Source: Acidimicrobiia bacterium (GTDB taxonomy: Bacteria; Actinomycetota; Acidimicrobiia; Spongiisociales; ZC4RG35). From it: 64,000 nucleotides of DNA. The stretch spans positions 22,758-86,757 of the forward strand of contig JBGTCK010000058.1 in NCBI GenBank assembly GCA_041748855.1. The letters are read 5' to 3'. A program made the position numbers and the translations under genes. The first letter of the stretch is position 1, and every line of letters begins with the position of its first letter. The notes beneath the pieces were generated by a model. That model made no database searches. It was not told the origin of the DNA and saw nothing but the letters and a program-made list of their open reading frames with translations. This document shows, piece by piece, positions 2,632-19,506 of the stretch.

Positions 2632-2699
2632 GCCCCCTAAAAGTGGGAGCGATCCATTGTAAACGCCGGGAAAGCCCCGACGAAAACGACGCCCGGAAC

Positions 2700-10983: not shown

Positions 10984-12078
10984 TCAGTAATCGATTGATC
11001 TCACCGTTGGGGAAGTGATATTCCCTTCGAGCAACCAGAGGTTTCCCCACTTGTCGAACGTGATCGCACTCGGAAGATTGAACTCTCCCGGAACTTCATC
11101 ACAATCACCCGTCGCGATGTCACAGGCATGAATAGCGCCACCGATCGACAATGCCGGCACGAAAGCCGCCAACCAGCTGCCCCTGTCATACTCGACCACG
11201 TACAGCTTCCCATCGGGGCCGAACTCGACATCGATCACGGATGTGAGCCCGTCGAGGAAGAGACTGCAGTCCACTGAAGGGCACACCACGTTTCGTGCTC
11301 CGGGTTCGATCCGCCATACCCGAGAAAGGCCAATAGGAAGGCTGCCCTCTGCGGTGGCTCCCGTCAGTTCCCCGACGTAGTAGGCACGATCAGGTCCGAT
11401 GGCAACCGATGTCGGGACAGGCTGGACGTAACAAGGAATGGAACCAGTTTCGGTCTCTGCTTCCCACCTGACCAGCCAGTCTCCATTCTGATCAACTGGC
11501 GGTGTGAAGATGGCCACCCAATCGACAGATCCGTTGACCCTCCCCGATAGCAGCGTGTTTCCGGCGGCATCAGCGATCAGCGCAGTGCTGGGTGACAACG
11601 CGGCCACGTGATATGGGTTGTTCTGCGGACCAGCGCTGAAGCCATCGATCGCCTCGCACCGCTGGTCCTTCCACATGGGCCCCTCGAAGGCATCAGGATC
11701 GCTGTTCCGCTCGAACGCCCCCAGATCGGCAACCATTCGAGCCGAGCCTGGAGAGACACGCCACAAAGCGCCGTCCATTGCCAGATCGGTGCTGGCGGTG
11801 GCGACAAATGCGCTGCCTCGCCCAAACGCGGCCAAACCGTTGATGGGTGTGGTGGAGCCGACCTCGACGAGGTCGTTGACCGCACCACGACGGATCTCTT
11901 TGATCGTGAAGTTCTCGCCCACGAGGATGCTCCCATCCGGGGCTGCGGCAATGTCGAATACTGCCGGTCCGAACTCGTACGGCCCTTCGCCGTTGTCGCC
12001 GGGCAATCCAGCTCCGGCGGACAGCATCGTCGACAACACCATCGCCAGGGCCGTCAGTAGGGTCAATAATCGTCTCAT
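10984..12078 (-). CDS. Secreted beta-propeller protein (ScyD/ScyE-family-like)
   Basis: 364 aa with a signal peptide (MRRLLTLLTALAMVLSTMLSAGAG). Repeated ...PDGS..V/..G.L.. blade-like segments end in ITFDKWGNLWLLEG. The family assignment is from memory of ScyD/ScyE-annotated actinobacterial proteins. Confidence 0.6.
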   Translation of the reverse strand: MRRLLTLLTALAMVLSTMLSAGAGLPGDNGEGPYEFGPAVFDIAAAPDGSILVGENFTIKEIRRGAVNDLVEVGSTTPINGLAAFGRGSAFVATASTDLAMDGALWRVSPGSARMVADLGAFERNSDPDAFEGPMWKDQRCEAIDGFSAGPQNNPYHVAALSPSTALIADAAGNTLLSGRVNGSVDWVAIFTPPVDQNGDWLVRWEAETETGSIPCYVQPVPTSVAIGPDRAYYVGELTGATAEGSLPIGLSRVWRIEPGARNVVCPSVDCSLFLDGLTSVIDVEFGPDGKLYVVEYDRGSWLAAFVPALSIGGAIHACDIATGDCDEVPGEFNLPSAITFDKWGNLWLLEGNITSPTVRSIDY

Positions 12079-12129: not shown

Positions 12130-12161
12130 AACGTAAGGAAGACCCCTAAACGATCTCTGAA
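12130..12161 (-). promoter_or_regulatory. Candidate SARP-dependent promoter: TTCAGAG-N4-TTTAGGG-N8-TACGTT
   Basis: The minus strand reads TTCAGAGatcgTTTAGGGgtcttcctTACGTT. That is two heptamers at 11-bp period with the proximal one 8 bp from a TANNNT hexamer, ~50 nt upstream of the 12078 start. The same layout occurs at 17050..17081. Confidence 0.55.
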
Positions 12162-12182
12162 CTGATCACGATCTGATCGCCG

Positions 12183-15100
12183 TCAGACGTTGAGAGAGCC
12201 GATGAGACGGAGTAACCCTCTGGCCTGTATTCGTTGCGAATCGGCCCGGGCAGATTCCATCTCGGCCAGGGCAGTATCACGGTCGCCCCGGTGCGACAAG
12301 GCTTCGGCAAGGCGAACCCGGCCGTACAGCTGGAAGTAGATGTAGTCGGCACGGTCCGTCGCCTCTCGCCACAGCCCGGGGTCGGGGTCGGTGACTCTAG
12401 AAAGCTCGGCGCGGGCGAACGCGAGGTGTGTCCCCTGTGTCTCGATGCCCAGGGACCCATCCGAAGGAGGGGGGAAGTTCAAGAGAAGGGCTTCCATCTC
12501 GGAAAATGTGGTCACGGCGTGGCCGATGTGTGCCTCTCTTTTAGATCCATCCGAGAGCAGCGCGGCGTTGACCTCTGCCCTGACGAGGGGATTGAGAACC
12601 CCAAGCTTCTTCGCTTCCTCCGACGGGTCCACCCGAACCGCCTGGTATGTCCGGGCATGGGCACGAACGGCCTCCACATCGCCCGCGTCGGCAGCTATGT
12701 CGGCAAGCAACGGGTAGTAGTCGTGGTACCAGCGGGGGTTGACCCCTATCTCATCTATCTCACTCATGGCCCGGGAGGCCTCTTCGAGGTCTCCTCTCAT
12801 CCAGCAGAGAGTCCCGTGGGTCATGAGATACCAAATACGGTCATAGCCCTCCATTCGGCCTTCCCGCAAGAGCCGGTTTGCTTCTTCAGCTTTGGCCCAC
12901 TCCCCGCTCTGCATGTACACATACGGAAACCAAGCCACAATTTGGCCCCATTGCTCCGGCCTCTGTTCGAGTGGAAATCGATCCATCAGCTCTTCGAGCA
13001 GACGCCGCGGCATCTCTCGGCGCATCTTCGGGTGCAGGGGGAGGATGTCGAACGTGAAATGGTAGGCCGCAATGGTGAGCTCAGGATCATCGAGCTTCAG
13101 GGCCTCATCCCGCGCATTCGACAGGACGGTGAGAGCCTCCTCGATCTCACCGTTCCAACCCAAAACGTGTCCGAGACAGATGTCGGCACGTATTCTTGCC
13201 GCAGCCTCGCCGGTGGCCTGTGCTACCGACACTGCCGATCGCGCCAGAGGGACAGCCTCTCGTGGATCTTGATCTACGAGCAGTAGGTGAAGATTGGCAA
13301 ATCTGGAGAGAACGGCCGCCTTTTGGGCAGATGGACCCGAAGTCGACGCTACCTCGTTCGCCGCCGAGGCCTCGGCAAACGCAGTGTCGCTCATGTTGAG
13401 ATGGAAGAAGACTTGGGCTAAGCGGGCCCGCAGTTCGGCTTCTCGCACGGAACTATCGCCGACGGCTTGAAGGGCGAGCTGGAGGACAGTCCTGGCTCCA
13501 GTGATGTTGCCTGTCATCAACCAATGCCATGCCAGAGCACTGGCGACCATCGATGTAGAAGCGCTGTCCGCTTCCTCCTGTGCCGTCTCTAGAGCAAGTA
13601 GCAGGTTGTCGCTTTCGAGCCGTAGCCGGGTCCGAAGCTCGTATCGGCCAGTGCCGTAGACCTTGTTCTCGGCCTCGGTGGCGAACTGCACGCACCACTC
13701 GAGGTGGCGACGCAGAGCATCGGCGATCTGCCCACGATCTATGAGGCGCTGGAGAGCGAATTCACGTACGGGCTCGAGGAGCCTGAACCGGGCGGGCTCC
13801 GAGCGATGTCGCGCTATCAGGGACTTGGCGACGAGGCTCTCGAGCACATCGAGGACAGAGTCCAGCGATCGGGATTCGTGCGCGGCTATGTGTTGCACCA
13901 TCGTGATGTCAAACCCACCCCGGAACACGGAGACTCGCTCGAACAGCGTCCTTTCTTCGTCGTCGAGCAAGTCGTAACTCCACCCGATCGCTGCACTCAG
14001 AGTCTGATGTCGAGGAAGGTCTGCGGCGTGGCTGGAGGCCAGGGAGAGAATTCGTTCGGTCAGATGCTGCCCAATCAACTCCAGACCCAGTGTCTTGACC
14101 TTGGATGCAACCAGCTCGATAGCTAGCGGTATGCCGTCGAGACGACGGCAAACCGCTGCCACCGATTCCGTGGTGCCATCGAGGTCGAACCGGGGATCGA
14201 CTAGCGCTGCTCGATCCGCGAAGAGAAGCACCGCGTCATATTCCCGGACCCCCAAGGGAGTCACACCTTCAGGCGGTATGGCGAGCGGGGGCACATCGAA
14301 TAGGGCCTCACCCGGCACATGCAGCGGCTCGCGGCTGGTCGCCAGAACCGTGACGCCCTCGCCCGCGGTGACCAGTGCTCGGGCGACAGAGGCGGCCCCT
14401 TCTCGAAGGTGCTCGCAGTTGTCCAACACCAGGAGGGCCTTGTCTCTGCGCAGAGAGTCGACCAGGCCCTGTAGAGGATCTTCGGTGTGAGGTTTCAGAC
14501 CGATGGCTGCGGCCACCTCGATAGGGATGAGCTCGGGGTCACGCAGGTCGGCCAGGTTCACGAACCAACACCCATCGGGGAACTCATTCAGCTGATTCAT
14601 AGAAGCACTCAGAGCGAGCCGGGTCTTGCCGGAGCCACCGACACCGGTAAGGGTCACGAGTCGGTGTGCACCGAGCAGCTTCTCGACAATTCTCAGCTCC
14701 TCTTCGCGACCGATGAATGCGGTGAGCTCGACGGGGAGGTTGTGCCTGGTGGATGTGAGCTCTTCACTGTGGAGCAGGATCTTTTCTTCGAGGCGGCGGA
14801 GTGCCGGTCCTGGCTGCAGCCCGATGCGGGCCAACACGGCGTTGTACTCCTGGTAGGCGTGCAGTGCCTCGACGTGACGACCCAGCCGGTACCGGGCTGT
14901 CATCAGATACTCCCAGAGTCGTTCCCGCAATGGGTTATCCACCACCAGCCTCTCCAATTCGGGTACAGCCTCCGATGGCCTTCCCAATCTGAGCAGTGCC
15001 TCGGCCCACATCTCCCACAAGTCGAGATAGAGCTCTTCGAGACGGACGATCTCGGCCCGCGCGAACTCATCATCGACCAGCTCGGTATAGGGCTGCCCCC

Positions 15101-15530
15101 GCCACATCCCAAGACCGATCGAGCTGGAAGCCAGGGCCTGCTCCCAATCACCTACCTCCACTGCCTCCCGCGCCCGTTGTGCCGCTTCGACGAACTGGGG
15201 CGCATCGAGGGCCCACGTCTCCACGTCCAGCCGGTAGCCGTAGCCTTCGGTGACGATCGCGTCGGCGCCCAGTATCCGCCTCAAAGCCGAGACATGAGTC
15301 TGCAGTGCGGCCCTCGCACTATCAGGCGGGCTTTCCCCCCAGAACATATCGATCAGGCGTTCCGTCCCGATCCGTCGGTTTGGTTCGAGAGCGAGGATCG
15401 AGAGCAGCCGAAGATGTGAGACCCGGGTGGGCTGCGATAGCCCCTCACCCATCACCCGAAGGTCGCCCAAAACCTCAATCCGCAGACCCGCCTCACCGGT
15501 CATGGACCCGATTCTTACAGGTGATCCCAT
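12183..15530 (-). CDS. AfsR/SARP-family regulator (OmpR-type wHTH + BTAD + NB-ARC ATPase + TPR)
   Basis: 1115 aa. The N-terminus is LRIEVLGDLRV...SHLRLLSILALEPNRRI, followed by a BTAD-like helical region, the P-loop GVGGSGKTRLA and a long TPR-like C-terminus. Confidence 0.9.
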   Translation of the reverse strand: MGSPVRIGSMTGEAGLRIEVLGDLRVMGEGLSQPTRVSHLRLLSILALEPNRRIGTERLIDMFWGESPPDSARAALQTHVSALRRILGADAIVTEGYGYRLDVETWALDAPQFVEAAQRAREAVEVGDWEQALASSSIGLGMWRGQPYTELVDDEFARAEIVRLEELYLDLWEMWAEALLRLGRPSEAVPELERLVVDNPLRERLWEYLMTARYRLGRHVEALHAYQEYNAVLARIGLQPGPALRRLEEKILLHSEELTSTRHNLPVELTAFIGREEELRIVEKLLGAHRLVTLTGVGGSGKTRLALSASMNQLNEFPDGCWFVNLADLRDPELIPIEVAAAIGLKPHTEDPLQGLVDSLRRDKALLVLDNCEHLREGAASVARALVTAGEGVTVLATSREPLHVPGEALFDVPPLAIPPEGVTPLGVREYDAVLLFADRAALVDPRFDLDGTTESVAAVCRRLDGIPLAIELVASKVKTLGLELIGQHLTERILSLASSHAADLPRHQTLSAAIGWSYDLLDDEERTLFERVSVFRGGFDITMVQHIAAHESRSLDSVLDVLESLVAKSLIARHRSEPARFRLLEPVREFALQRLIDRGQIADALRRHLEWCVQFATEAENKVYGTGRYELRTRLRLESDNLLLALETAQEEADSASTSMVASALAWHWLMTGNITGARTVLQLALQAVGDSSVREAELRARLAQVFFHLNMSDTAFAEASAANEVASTSGPSAQKAAVLSRFANLHLLLVDQDPREAVPLARSAVSVAQATGEAAARIRADICLGHVLGWNGEIEEALTVLSNARDEALKLDDPELTIAAYHFTFDILPLHPKMRREMPRRLLEELMDRFPLEQRPEQWGQIVAWFPYVYMQSGEWAKAEEANRLLREGRMEGYDRIWYLMTHGTLCWMRGDLEEASRAMSEIDEIGVNPRWYHDYYPLLADIAADAGDVEAVRAHARTYQAVRVDPSEEAKKLGVLNPLVRAEVNAALLSDGSKREAHIGHAVTTFSEMEALLLNFPPPSDGSLGIETQGTHLAFARAELSRVTDPDPGLWREATDRADYIYFQLYGRVRLAEALSHRGDRDTALAEMESARADSQRIQARGLLRLIGSLNV

Positions 15531-15641: not shown

Positions 15642-17024
15642 CTAAGTGAGGACGACTGCCTGATTTGCCTGGCTGAACAGGTTGTTTGGGTCGTATCTCG
15701 CTTTGATCTCTTGAAGCCGCTGTAGGTTGGGCCCGTAGGTGGCGTTCACCCGGTCGTTGTCGTCCTTGTCGACATAGTTGGAATAGACACCCGACGCCGC
15801 ATGGGGTCGCATCGTCTCATGAAGGGAGCGGGTCCATTCGATGGCAGCCAAATCATCGGTCGGGCTCTCCCAACCAGAAGAGATGCCGAGGCCGAACTTC
15901 ACACCTCGATGAGGGAATGCGGTCACCGAAGGATCCACCCGCGACACTGCCCCTCCCAGAGGCTCCAGGAACACGTTCGAATAGATACCGGGAAGTGAGT
16001 CGACGCCTGCGACCAGAGTGCCAATTGCCTCGTCAGTGAGCTCGTTGAGATACTGCGCTTTCCAGTAATAGCGGCCACCATCCGGGGCACCGGCGTCGAA
16101 GCTCGACTGCAGGTCTGCGTACGGGATCGGAGCGAGGACGGACAGCATCGACGATCCGAACTCGGCGAGTGGGGCCAGTTCGGCCTCCCCTTCTTCGAGC
16201 GAGCCCGCATGACAGGCAACCAACGCCAGACACGTAGCCCCATGCTGAGACACGGGGAATGGTTCGACCGGTGGAGTGTTTATGAACAACGCAAAGCAGC
16301 CGACCGCATCTGAGGCATCGGCCATGAAGTCCCGATAGAAGGTGAGTGCTCGCCTCGACTGATCCATCGAATAGAAGGCCTGTGCGTGCATCACATCCGG
16401 CCCGACCTCGCTAAGCCGGAACTCGAATGCCGTGACCACACCGAAGTTGCCGCCCCCACCGCGCAGTGCCCAGAAGAGATCCGGGTGTTGCTTCTCGGTC
16501 GCATACACCGTGCGACCATCGGCGAGTACCACCTCGGCTCCCACCAGCTGGTCGATCGTGAGTCCGATGCTTCGAGCCAGATAGCCGATCCCGCCGCCGA
16601 GTGTGAGCCCGCCCACGCCGGTTCGAGAGTCCACTCCCCCGGTCACCGCCAGGCCAAACGCCTGGGTCTCGTGATCGACAACTCCCCAGGTTGCACCGGC
16701 GCCGACACGGGCGGTCTTGGTCTGCTGATCGACCTGCACCGACTTCATCAACGAGAGGTCGATCATCAAGGATCCATCCCGGACCGCTTTCCCGGCTACG
16801 CCATGACCGCCGCCCTTCACCGTGATGTCCAGACCCTCTTTTCTTGCCAGGTCGAGGGCAGCTATCACGTCTGCGGTCCCCTCACAACGAGCGATGAGGA
16901 CGGGGTACTGATCAACCATCCCGTTCCACACTCGACGGGCCATGTCGTAGCCGTCGTCCTCGGATGAGAGGAGGGACCCACGGAATGACCCGCCTGCATC
17001 TCGGATTGACTGTGTGTCGAGCAT
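15642..17024 (-). CDS. FAD-linked oxidase (PCMH-type FAD-binding domain + C-terminal BBE domain)
   Basis: 460 aa. It contains ...VKGGGHGVAGKAV...GGGIGYL... and a C-terminal YSNYVDKDD...YGPNLQRLQEIKARYDPNNLF (berberine-bridge-like tail). Confidence 0.85.
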   Translation of the reverse strand: MLDTQSIRDAGGSFRGSLLSSEDDGYDMARRVWNGMVDQYPVLIARCEGTADVIAALDLARKEGLDITVKGGGHGVAGKAVRDGSLMIDLSLMKSVQVDQQTKTARVGAGATWGVVDHETQAFGLAVTGGVDSRTGVGGLTLGGGIGYLARSIGLTIDQLVGAEVVLADGRTVYATEKQHPDLFWALRGGGGNFGVVTAFEFRLSEVGPDVMHAQAFYSMDQSRRALTFYRDFMADASDAVGCFALFINTPPVEPFPVSQHGATCLALVACHAGSLEEGEAELAPLAEFGSSMLSVLAPIPYADLQSSFDAGAPDGGRYYWKAQYLNELTDEAIGTLVAGVDSLPGIYSNVFLEPLGGAVSRVDPSVTAFPHRGVKFGLGISSGWESPTDDLAAIEWTRSLHETMRPHAASGVYSNYVDKDDNDRVNATYGPNLQRLQEIKARYDPNNLFSQANQAVVLT

Positions 17025-17049: not shown

Positions 17050-17081
17050 AACCTACGTGAGGCCTCTAAACGGCCTCTGAA
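17050..17081 (-). promoter_or_regulatory. Candidate SARP-dependent promoter: TTCAGAG-N4-TTTAGAG-N8-TAGGTT
   Basis: The minus strand reads TTCAGAGgccgTTTAGAGgcctcacgTAGGTT, followed 17 nt later by AAGGAGAAAGA-ATG of the FAD oxidase gene. Confidence 0.55.
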
Positions 17082-17130: not shown

Positions 17131-17436
17131 TCAGTCGGCGATCAGGCGAAAGCGGTCGAATCCCTTGGGCTTCGGGCGGCTCGGCTCCGATGGGATACGG
17201 GCATGGGAGCGTCGGTGGCTGTCGCTGCGCATGTAGGAGCGGAAGCTCGCCTCGTCGTCCCACCACGACACCATCAGGAATCGTCCGTCGTCCCGCTGGT
17301 CCTGCCACACTTCCAAATGGCGGAACCCCGGCCAATCGTCGACTTCGCCCAATCGGTTCCGAAATGCTTCAACGAGAGTGTCCGATGCATTCTCCTCGCT
17401 GGAGATCTCCGAGACTGCCACAAAAGGCTCACTCAT
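17131..17436 (-). CDS. Antibiotic-biosynthesis-monooxygenase (ABM) domain protein
   Basis: The ORF 17131..17619 is trimmed to MSEPFVAVSEI... (101 aa). This is a ferredoxin-like ABM pattern (...FRHLEVWQDQRDDGRFLMVSWWDDEASFRSYMRSDSHRRSH). The ATG overlaps the upstream stop by 8 nt (ATGAGTGA). Confidence 0.7.
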   Translation of the reverse strand: MSEPFVAVSEISSEENASDTLVEAFRNRLGEVDDWPGFRHLEVWQDQRDDGRFLMVSWWDDEASFRSYMRSDSHRRSHARIPSEPSRPKPKGFDRFRLIAD

Positions 17437-17788
17437 CGTCACTACTCCCGGGAACGGAAGCGAGGAGGTCGAGGAGCACATTCCGTGCGGGTGGTTCGAG
17501 ATGAGCCTCGCCGATTGCGCCCATATAAGTCCAGGCATCGTCGAGCCACTTTCGGGGAAACCCTCGATCCCGGAACAGGTCATAGCAGTAGTCAACGTGG
17601 CTTCTGAAGGCGTCCTCACCGTCGGCTACGGCCTGAAAGTGCAGCGTGAAGTCATTCAGCGTGTGCTGCCGCCCCTTCTCGCCCAGGTCCCAGAGGTCGG
17701 GCTGATCGGCATACATGGTCTCAGTCGCGAGAAAGGCCAGATGGGGGGCGGCCTCCCTGATGACAACGTCAGGATTCCTGGTGGTCAT
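17429..17788 (-). CDS. Hypothetical 119-aa protein, no family recognised
   Basis: The composition looks all-helical. The start overlaps the histidine kinase stop (ATGA), and the stop overlaps the ABM start. Confidence 0.55.
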   Translation of the reverse strand: MTTRNPDVVIREAAPHLAFLATETMYADQPDLWDLGEKGRQHTLNDFTLHFQAVADGEDAFRSHVDYCYDLFRDRGFPRKWLDDAWTYMGAIGEAHLEPPARNVLLDLLASVPGSSDDE

Positions 17789-19506
17789 GCCGCCAGGTGG
17801 TGACGCTCGAGCGCATCTAGTGCGGCTTCAGGTCGGGTGCCGAGGTTCGTGCCAGGCAGCCCATCCACCGGGGCGAAATCTTCGGCGAACAGGCGCCCAC
17901 CGAATCCAAGGAAGAGACCCTTCTCCAGATGCCCGTTGAGCGCGGCGCCCAGCTCGCGCAGGCCGTTCAGGTCGCGAGCTGTGGAAAGCGACAGGAGCAG
18001 GGCATCGGCACCTGTAGTCTCCACGGTTTCGACGAGCGAGTCGACCGGCACTCCTCTTCCGATGTAGATCACCCGATAGCCGGCCTCGGCGACCAGCAGT
18101 GCCAGCGAGACGAGGCCCGTTTCGTGCTCATTGCCCGGGGCCGAGGCACATATCACGGTTTCTTCTCGAGTCGGCTGGTAGCGAGCCAGGAGCATCATCA
18201 GCCAGGAGTGCACAACCGAGGACGCGTGATGTTCCTGTGCAACGCTGATCTCACCTCGCTGCCAACGGTCACCCACTTCGTACATGACGGGCTGAACGAT
18301 CTCCTCGAGCACGCGTTTGGGAGGCTGGTCGAACGACAACCGATTGACACGATGGCGAGCATCCTCGGTCTGATAAGCAAGGAGCTCGTCAATCAGCTCG
18401 ATCCGCTCACGTTCGAAGTCGATGGGCTTCTGTCCAGAGGCCCCACCCGATTTGAGCAAGGTGATCCGGAAGATTGCCCCGGCGTCAGTTGGCACGTATT
18501 CGAGGATGCCTCCCATGTCTGATACCAATGAGCGGCCTATCGCCAACCCGATTCCCGTACTCGCGATTGAAGCACCAGCCGTTCCAGTGCTGAATGGTTG
18601 AAATACCCTCTCGATATCGCCAGGATCGATGCCCGACCCGTTGTCCCTGACGTCGATAATGGCTTGATCGTCCACTTCGTGAAGACGGATTCCTATTTCC
18701 GGCCCGCCGTATTTGACTGCATTCTGGAGGAGTCCTCTCACCACCTGCAAGAGTCTGCGGGTGTCGGCAACCACGACAGAGGGCGTGAGGCTGCCTTCGA
18801 TCGTCACGACCGCGTCGGGAAAGCTCTGCGCGAGCTTGATTATCGCTCCGGTCAATTCGGTTCCTGCGACTCCGGCGCTCTCGACCTGAAGTCGACCAGA
18901 TGCGGTGAGACCCACGGTGAGAAGATCATCAATCAAACTATCGAGCTCGGTCGCCTGGTCGACGATTATCGTGAGGAACTCTGCCAACTCCTCCTTATCG
19001 TTCTGCTCCAGGGCGATCTCGCCGAAGCCCCGAATCGAGGTCACGGGTTGCCGGAGCTCGTGAACCACGCCGCCGATCATCTCGAACGCTTGCGACTTCC
19101 CCTTCAACGCCTCCTCTAGAAGGACGCTGTAACGGTATTGACCGGTAAGGTCGAGGGCGAAGATAACCCAATGATCTGCATCGAGGCGACGCACCTCGAC
19201 TCTCCAAACGGTCACTGAATCATCGAGCTCCCATTTTCGGCCGTAGGCCAGTCCCTGGATACGTAACGGGAAGGTCTCCGAGGAGCCGGGGGCCATGTCG
19301 AGCAGCGTCTCCAACCATCCCTCGAAGTGGGCTCCGGGGAACACCTCGGCCGGGCTCTTGGCGATCATGTCATCCTGACTGCTCAGCTCGCAAGCCAGGC
19401 TGCTGGCCATCGTGGTGACCAACTGGTCGGAGCGTCGTTCGACCACGATGATCGCCAGAGGCGCATCTTCAACGGCCTTGGACAGCAGGCTTTCGTAGGA
19501 GGTCAA
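17785..19506 (-). CDS. Sensor histidine kinase with a C-terminal CarH-type cobalamin-binding module
   Basis: 573 aa with a TTG start after AAGGA. It has a PAS-like N-terminus, the H-box VVHELRQPVTSIRGF, the N-box LLQNAVKYG and G-boxes DNGSGI and STGIGLAIG. These are followed by GDRWQRGEISVAQEHH (Wx9EH) and APGNEHETG...RVIYIGRGVP...ADALLLS (a B12 Rossmann domain). Confidence 0.85.
   Translation of the reverse strand: MTSYESLLSKAVEDAPLAIIVVERRSDQLVTTMASSLACELSSQDDMIAKSPAEVFPGAHFEGWLETLLDMAPGSSETFPLRIQGLAYGRKWELDDSVTVWRVEVRRLDADHWVIFALDLTGQYRYSVLLEEALKGKSQAFEMIGGVVHELRQPVTSIRGFGEIALEQNDKEELAEFLTIIVDQATELDSLIDDLLTVGLTASGRLQVESAGVAGTELTGAIIKLAQSFPDAVVTIEGSLTPSVVVADTRRLLQVVRGLLQNAVKYGGPEIGIRLHEVDDQAIIDVRDNGSGIDPGDIERVFQPFSTGTAGASIASTGIGLAIGRSLVSDMGGILEYVPTDAGAIFRITLLKSGGASGQKPIDFERERIELIDELLAYQTEDARHRVNRLSFDQPPKRVLEEIVQPVMYEVGDRWQRGEISVAQEHHASSVVHSWLMMLLARYQPTREETVICASAPGNEHETGLVSLALLVAEAGYRVIYIGRGVPVDSLVETVETTGADALLLSLSTARDLNGLRELGAALNGHLEKGLFLGFGGRLFAEDFAPVDGLPGTNLGTRPEAALDALERHHLAA
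17788..18324 (-). other. B12-binding_2 helical bundle + B12-binding Rossmann module of the kinase (aa ~395-573)
   Basis: By my residue count the key residues are W415, E425, H426 and H461 (NEH461ETG). Confidence 0.7.

Follow-up and report, generated by a model that had tools for sequence, protein, structure and literature searches.

Two short elements on the minus strand of the stretch of DNA analysed here (64 kb, hereafter the window) are very probably operator-promoters of the AfsR type (afs boxes), belonging to the large SARP regulator that is encoded between them. Each element can be read as a 22-bp box of two 11-bp direct repeats with the core (C)G-TTYAGNG, in which the end of the promoter-proximal heptamer is separated by 8 bp from a putative -10 hexamer (TACGKT). 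The box is conserved in 12 loci carrying an ortholog of the regulator and absent from 677 kb of control DNA, which supports the local regulon of two promoters that the preliminary description of this DNA had proposed for the flanked SARP. The coordinates of the features, together with the gene orders found in the relatives, are collected in Table 1.

Table 1. Boxes and genes of the window, second targets of the box and gene order in the SARP ortholog loci (positions refer to the window unless a locus is named).
Feature	Position or locus	Strand	Remark
Upstream heptamer TTCAGAG, ScyD/E box	12155..12161	-	The upstream repeat lies here at every ortholog site
Downstream (promoter-proximal) heptamer TTTAGGG, ScyD/E box	12144..12150	-	11 bp after the first
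-10-like hexamer TACGTT, ScyD/E box	12130..12135	-	8 bp past the downstream heptamer, 51 nt before ATG 12078
Upstream heptamer TTCAGAG, FAD/BBE oxidase box	17075..17081	-	
Downstream heptamer TTTAGAG, oxidase box	17064..17070	-	
-10-like hexamer TAGGTT, oxidase box	17050..17055	-	8 bp past the heptamer, 25 nt before ATG 17024
Large SARP gene	12183..15530	-	Trans_reg_C (winged HTH), BTAD, AAA (P-loop NTPase, NOD-like) and TPR (Pfam)
FAD/BBE oxidase gene	15642..17024	-	FAD_binding_4 and BBE domains
ScyD/ScyE-family secreted beta-propeller gene	10984..12078	-	NCBIfam 145 bits, cut-off 80
Second target, secreted protein of about 250 aa	L001 5143-5883, L089 6126-6884, L090 6161-6907, L091 5887-6837		316 aa in L091
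Second target, ScyD/E propeller	Window and L003		L003 ortholog has the same box
Second target, lipoprotein-like proteins	L004, L091		
Second target, luciferase-like enzyme	L093		
Order oxidase, SARP, propeller, all on one strand	Window, L003		
Oxidase convergent with SARP	L001, L004, L086-L090, L093		
Oxidase downstream of SARP, same strand	L005		
Oxidase divergent from SARP	L091, L092		

The identities that had been proposed for the three genes of the locus, a SARP regulator, an FAD oxidase and a ScyD/E-like protein, are confirmed by their domains. The SARP gene corresponds to an ORF of 1115 aa (1106 aa in the database gene call) and lies 111 nt downstream of the oxidase gene, while the ScyD/ScyE-family protein (10984-12078) begins with a signal-peptide-like N-terminus. 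In NCBIfam, the best models for the oxidase (15642-17024) are the bagremycin/ferroverdin oxygenases BagK/FevA1 and BagG/FevA2, and the BagI/FevR regulator comes second to the AfsR model for the SARP (12183-15530), with scores far below the cut-offs for both proteins. This likeness is a loose parallel, namely a SARP and a BBE-like oxygenase in a known Streptomyces cluster. Another neighbour is a histidine kinase on the minus strand (17785-19506), with HisKA and HATPase_c domains followed by C-terminal B12-binding_2 and B12-binding domains, which would make it a sensor kinase linked to cobalamin and possibly responsive to light. It is located two genes upstream of the oxidase promoter, with a gene for an ABM monooxygenase-domain protein (17131-17619) in between.

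The two look-alike elements of the preliminary description are both present on the minus strand, at 12161-12130 and 17081-17050. The first one reads TTCAGAG-atcg-TTTAGGG-gtcttcct-TACGTT and occupies the spacer between the SARP stop (12183) and the ATG (12078) of the 364-aa ORF of the ScyD/E-like protein, ending 51 nt before this codon. The second one reads TTCAGAG-gccg-TTTAGAG-gcctcacg-TAGGTT and ends 25 nt before the ATG (17024) of the 460-aa ORF of the oxidase; an AAGGAG ribosome-binding site is found between its hexamer (17050..17055) and the start codon. An identity of 19 out of 23 nucleotides had been reported for the pair, and this figure is right when the G preceding the first heptamer is counted; over 32 nt, 24 positions are identical. 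Alignment of the two spacers limits the likeness to the element, and the flanks do not align. The pattern TTYAGRG-N4-TTYAGRG-N8-TANNNT has exactly two matches in the 64-kb window and none in 100 shuffles that preserve dinucleotides, and the same two sites are the only exact matches to the two-heptamer pattern when the hexamer is left out. A further match from a relaxed search (19202-19219, 1-2 mismatches) was rejected, as it falls in the coding region of the histidine kinase, in its 5' part, lacks a hexamer and is at chance level. A sigma-70 scan covering 10.5-20.5 kb of the window gave no -35/-10 promoter on the minus strand, the sole -35-like hexamer at the two boxes being TTCAGA, 20 bp from the -10-like hexamer, and terminator-like sites were predicted neither in the box spacers nor between the oxidase and SARP genes. 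The minus-strand spacer directly upstream of the ScyD/E box (12162-12182) is GCGATCAGATCGTGATCAG, with GATCAG twice and three GATC motifs, and it is partly retained in the related locus L003 as ggcgatcaaaatcgggatgag.

Full-length homologs of the SARP form a graded series from 89% down to about 40% identity, and their hosts, where named, are Gaiellaceae, Thermoleophilia, Acidimicrobiia and other Actinomycetota MAGs. A scan of a genome collection with the SARP gave two relatives. The ortholog set consists of 13 distinct loci (L001-L005 and L086-L093, where L086 and L087 are two contigs of the same locus), and 12 of them, with SARPs 41-83% identical, have enough flank for the box to be counted. 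The remaining one, L002, is a 5.5-kb contig that stops inside the SARP gene; no box was found in it, and it is uninformative on this point because the oxidase side is absent from the contig. In all 12 loci with enough flank, a FAD_binding_4/BBE oxidase adjoins the SARP (60% identical to the window oxidase in L001). As a negative control, 80 loci of paralogous SARP/NTPase proteins (677 kb) were used. These came from a metagenome scan with an alignment of 30 SARP sequences, which picked generic Walker-A and LDNCEH patterns and hence paralogs (30-44% identity) of no use as orthologs.

The conservation of the box in orthologous loci, which the preliminary description had put forward as a check, is borne out by the same layout at the oxidase operon in 12 of 12 loci with rearranged gene order, and a second box is often present before a neighbouring gene for a secreted protein. 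Using the broader pattern TTNAGNG-N4-TTNAGNG-N8-TANNNT, 15 sites were obtained in 11 ortholog sources (10 distinct loci) versus none in the 80 control loci. A weight matrix built from these 15 sites scores ortholog sites at 17-47 bits, the best control reaching 12.8 bits, and it recovered sites outside the training set, i.e., the oxidase promoter of L089, two sites in L091, one in L092, and two in L093; the L093 site at 12982 has 11.8 bits only, which is under the best control score. Another oxidase site of L093 was seen by eye (TTTAGCG-ccgg-TTTAGGT-N8-CACGAT). The loci L091-L093 were fetched once the pattern was fixed and constitute therefore a test of prediction, in which the box was found at the predicted places next to SARPs only 41-47% identical. 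In addition, an unseeded enumeration of 17,069 gapped 7-mers in the upstream regions (200 nt) of the 12 oxidase operons ranked TTTAGNG first (9 of 12, p 3e-19), and TTNAGNG occurs in every one of these upstream regions.

Regarding the anatomy of the family sites, the distance from one heptamer start to the next is exactly 11 bp at the two window sites, and the 18 family sites that were aligned all show it too, with no gaps; TANNNT is found exactly 8 bp past the downstream heptamer in 18 of 20 family sites, with TACGKT as consensus. The two sites with no TANNNT at this position are distant ones (that of L092 and the oxidase site of L093). In the family alignment, conservation extends from about -3 to +31, with flanks of about 0 bits, and includes columns outside the search pattern, namely a CG ahead of the second heptamer, a C at each of positions +20 and +24, and a CG within the hexamer. 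The heptamer had been described as TTYAGRG; its purine at position 6 stands for the window and the closest relative, but not for the family, whose consensus is TT[T/C/G]AG[C/A/T/G]G with mostly C at position 6 and an invariant G at positions 5 and 7. Every family site faces a gene start, and the box precedes either the oxidase operon or the gene adjoining the SARP, whatever the order or orientation of the genes. At 8 of 15 sites, 25-30 nt separate the hexamer from the start codon and include a Shine-Dalgarno sequence, which fits short leaders.

The occurrence of the box is also restricted in space, as all sites above about 17 bits in some 250 kb of ortholog DNA plus the 64-kb window are no more than about 3 kb away from the SARP gene. 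In two loci whose oxidase homolog (53-54% identity, both from distant phyla) has no neighbouring SARP, the box is missing, so that, to judge from the sequences of these two loci, the box goes with the SARP and not with the oxidase. These homologs (L094 7001-8377 and L095 7001-8401) belong to a low-GC Bacillus MAG and to an organism that has Por-secretion-tail proteins, and neither is near a SARP gene; therefore, the oxidase family is much wider than the SARP module. Some related arrangements were observed as well. Just past a paralogous SARP gene in L013 (3754-3831), the pair TTCAGCG-N4-TTCAGCG occurs twice, back to back and once on each strand, and neither copy is followed by TANNNT at 8 bp. 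The SARP of this locus is 41% identical and has a different recognition helix (NALQVHVGTLRR), and the repeat pairs may represent the afs-type box of another SARP subfamily. In L014 (about 2667-2684, minus strand), TTCAGCC-tttt-TTCAGCG, a single match with 1 mismatch, lies immediately ahead of a further paralogous SARP gene, in divergent orientation, and is possibly a related box. Only in L005 (11320-11347) is there a third heptamer, TTCAGCA, placed 10 bp (not 11) upstream of the first repeat.

Two kinds of genes are preceded by the box in the ortholog loci. The first kind comprises the oxidase gene or, ahead of it, the gene for a conserved small secreted protein of 134-146 aa. The latter protein is encoded in L004 (10699-11139), L005 (11446-11850), and L087 (4876-5307; 5251-5598 in L086), carries the motif AHECMV.NRSQ.GEQAVGNSPMWLSENMAT, and has no Pfam or NCBIfam match. 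The second kind is the gene adjoining the SARP, which belongs to at least three unrelated families (Table 1). For example, in several loci the ScyD/E propeller is replaced by a secreted family of about 250 aa, again with no match in Pfam or NCBIfam, whose gene is divergent from the SARP gene and has a box-containing promoter. By sequence comparison, the second target of L001 is unrelated to the ScyD/E protein of the window and, therefore, the second target varies between lineages.

The layout of these sites is that of a known kind of promoter. According to the rule for SARP promoters, the direct repeats recur at 11 or 22 bp, with 8 bp between the 3' repeat and the -10 element (PMC10936776, citing Tanaka 2007; PMC7040171, PMC10972967). 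In our sites, direct repeats of 11 bp are found 8 bp from the -10 element deduced from the sequence, there is no -35 element at normal spacing, and a cognate SARP with winged-helix and BTAD domains adjoins in all 12 box-bearing ortholog loci. The closest parallel is the afs box bound by AfsR of Streptomyces coelicolor (cryo-EM structures 8HVR, 8JKE, and 8K60), which is also a 22-bp box of two 11-bp direct repeats. At the afsS promoter, the upstream repeat has TTC and the downstream one TTT, as in the window (PMC10936776), the 3' repeat is likewise separated by 8 bp from the -10 hexamer, and a weak -35 motif, TTCAGC, lies inside the upstream 11-bp repeat at an unusually long spacer of 20 bp (PMC10936776, PMC11301090); its counterpart in the window is TTCAGA, at about 20 bp. 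The AfsR consensus derived from 20 afsS promoters is YGTTYAKSD in the form quoted in PMC10832544. Compared with this quoted form, 11 of the 36 repeat units match at 9 of 9 positions, 12 at 8, and 12 at 7, the T at position 3 is present in all 36, and the proximal repeat is the one that agrees best; in fact, the downstream heptamer of the ScyD/E box with its preceding CG, CGTTTAGGG, is a 9/9 match. Thus, the box had been rightly set apart from the classical TCGAGXX, but it is not new, as it fits the AfsR consensus so quoted. The regulators are also alike, both being large SARPs with NTPase (NOD) and TPR parts. On the other hand, the conserved targets are here the FAD/BBE oxidase and secreted proteins instead of afsS (a gene for a small sigma-like regulator), the hosts are uncultured Thermoleophilia/Acidimicrobiia-like Actinomycetota instead of Streptomyces, and the G at heptamer positions 5 and 7 is invariant, in contrast to the afs box. 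The boxes of small SARPs (ActII-ORF4, DnrI, RedD, and FdmR1) share with the window heptamer direct repeats that are spaced by 4 nt, overlap or replace the -35 element, and are separated from the -10 element by 8 bp, and these regulators are also encoded beside their targets (PMC10972967, PMC7040171). They differ in the heptamer, which is here TTYAGNG in only two repeats and not TCGAGXX; besides, the regulator described here has large C-terminal sensor domains, and its locus is not an obvious antibiotic gene cluster.

The likeness to AfsR extends to the structure of the regulator. In a structure search, the N-terminal 277 residues of the SARP matched EmbR (2FEZ, E 2e-33) and AfsR (8K60, 8JKE, and 8HVR, E about 1e-29), aligning with residues 23-266 of the latter. 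This similarity was found in the SARP and NTPase parts only, and the protein falls short of being an AfsR equivalog, with 173 bits (residues 12-629) versus a cut-off of 1430 for the NCBIfam AfsR model. Among the residues of AfsR that contact DNA, W74, P79, T88, S91, R94, and K95 are conserved or conservatively replaced. R87 corresponds to Gln, and in place of R92, from which AfsR makes a hydrogen bond to the repeat's first, essential T (PMC10936776), the family has Ala, or Gly in one locus; therefore, the read-out of the TT cannot be transferred from the AfsR structure. All 14 ortholog sources, representing 13 distinct loci, keep the recognition helix AKAALQTH[VI]SALR[RK], four loci showing single substitutions in it; it differs in more than 40 paralogs of the control loci, most of which have Arg or Lys at the R92 position. 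The paralog loci with a differing helix have no box, except for the weak look-alike in L013. The distinctive helix, conserved in the orthologs only, thus goes with a distinctive G-rich variant of the box. A search of the literature found no SARP from these uncultured actinobacterial lineages.

The only serious rival of the SARP as the protein that reads the boxes is another OmpR-family regulator, similar to PhoP and recognizing 11-bp repeats of the PHO-box kind, with the SARP as a bystander or competitor. In Streptomyces, the PHO box also consists of 11-nt direct repeats with a GTTCA-like core, of which two units are needed, over the -35 region of activated promoters (PMC6988585), and the repeat unit GTTCAGC is one position off the PHO-box core GTTCACC. 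In addition, PhoP and AfsR bind overlapping sequences and compete at afsS (PMC6988585, PMC10936776), and the linkage between SARP and oxidase confounds arguments from association: since both genes are always neighbours, any regulator of the oxidase would also look associated with the SARP. The details of the box point away from PhoP. The GTTCACC core is not found, as the C of the TCA core is a variable position here (C, T, or G), with G and N at positions 6-7 in place of CC, and the invariant AG-G is not a feature of the PHO box. Moreover, the sites above about 17 bits cluster around the SARP gene, neither a phoP gene nor any other response regulator gene is conserved in the ortholog loci, and the 8-bp distance to the -10 element is a SARP signature (PMC10936776). 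A PhoP-like regulator is for these reasons an unlikely reader of the boxes. Still less probable is a promoter for an ECF-type sigma factor, with the GTT repeat as -35 and the CGT within TACGKT as -10 element. It would account for the conservation of the CG within the hexamer, which exceeds the needs of a housekeeping -10 element, and genes for ECF sigma factors do occur near two loci (L088 and L093); however, they are missing from most loci, a tandem direct repeat with a period of one turn is not a feature of sigma recognition, and the reading was rejected on spacing, the distance from GTTTAG to CGT being 12 nt (proximal) or 23 nt (distal) instead of the usual 16-17.

The preliminary description had offered an RNA hairpin (GAGGCC/GGCCUC and GAGAUC/GGUCUU) as an alternative, which would act as an attenuator or processing signal in read-through transcripts. 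Both window copies can indeed form a stem of 6 bp with a loop of 7 nt, a potential that exists because a self-complementary G-R-Y-C follows each direct repeat, and there is a weak excess of double changes (10 cells versus 5.2 in shuffles). However, folding and a pairing test over 18 sites show that the stem is not conserved in the relatives, and this alternative is very improbable. The folding energies of the window copies are unremarkable (z -1.2 and -1.5), and the relatives fold differently or worse than shuffles (z +1.2 in L005 and +1.9 in L086). Over the 18 sites, the share of cells that pair is 68.5% (63.4% in the shuffles), for three of the six pairs the pairing is lost in 7-12 sites, and it is the loop and the heptamers, not the stem, that are conserved. 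Besides, if the hexamer is the -10 element, the hairpin would not be transcribed from its own promoter. Finally, the idea that the likeness arose by chance, or by a recent local duplication, and has no function, conceivable for only two short copies, is refuted by the comparative data, given that none of the 100 shuffles reproduced the match and the layout is kept in 12 other loci, down to 41% identity of the regulator, and a recent duplication is rejected because the flanks of the elements are unrelated.

For the operator-promoters of the SARP, the mechanism expected is that of AfsR. By analogy with the initiation complexes of AfsR, two SARP protomers would use their winged-helix domains to bind next to each other on the same face of the DNA, covering the -35 region and touching region 4 of sigma as well as the polymerase core, including the beta flap. 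The promoters appear to lack a usable -35 element, with the upstream heptamer probably substituting as a poor one about 20 bp before the -10 element, and the SARP pair would recruit the housekeeping holoenzyme to a promoter that has a -10 element only. In this manner, the SARP would turn on the FAD/BBE oxidase and the secreted ScyD/E-family protein. The C-terminal NTPase/TPR part presumably gates the activity of the SARP, as in AfsR, in response to a signal that it would sense. Since the SARP gene lies just past the oxidase gene and no terminator is predicted between them, the regulator may boost its own transcription by read-through; in the window as well as in L003, the oxidase promoter has the SARP gene downstream of it, which suggests positive feedback of this kind. 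In loci where a box promoter and the SARP gene are divergent, the protein, once bound, would be located in the short intergenic region just before the start codon of its own gene, so some autoregulation is possible as well. The box itself is an old and widespread afs-type design, that is, a known kind of promoter.

A broader reading, which is tentative, would take the locus as one instance of a widespread, uncharacterised module of deep-branching, mostly uncultured Actinomycetota (Thermoleophilia, Gaiellaceae, and Acidimicrobiia). Such a module would comprise an AfsR-like NOD/TPR SARP, an afs-type box, a BBE-like FAD oxidase, and secreted proteins that vary between lineages, with an alternative read-out of the box by the helix Q-T-H-V-S-A. 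If this is true, the same operator would be read differently, with Ala where AfsR uses R92 for the key thymine, and the product or substrate of the oxidase could be a ligand that feeds back on the sensor domains. The combination of a conserved box with a changed base-reading residue bears on the specificity of SARP winged helices. From a practical point of view, the weight matrix can be used for target prediction in metagenome-assembled genomes, and the SARP/box pair could serve to switch on linked oxidase genes heterologously. The two elements supply a family of large SARPs from uncultured soil actinobacteria with a candidate operator and a minimal regulon, and they indicate that the architecture of the afs box, and nearly its sequence, is used well beyond Streptomyces and antibiotic gene clusters.
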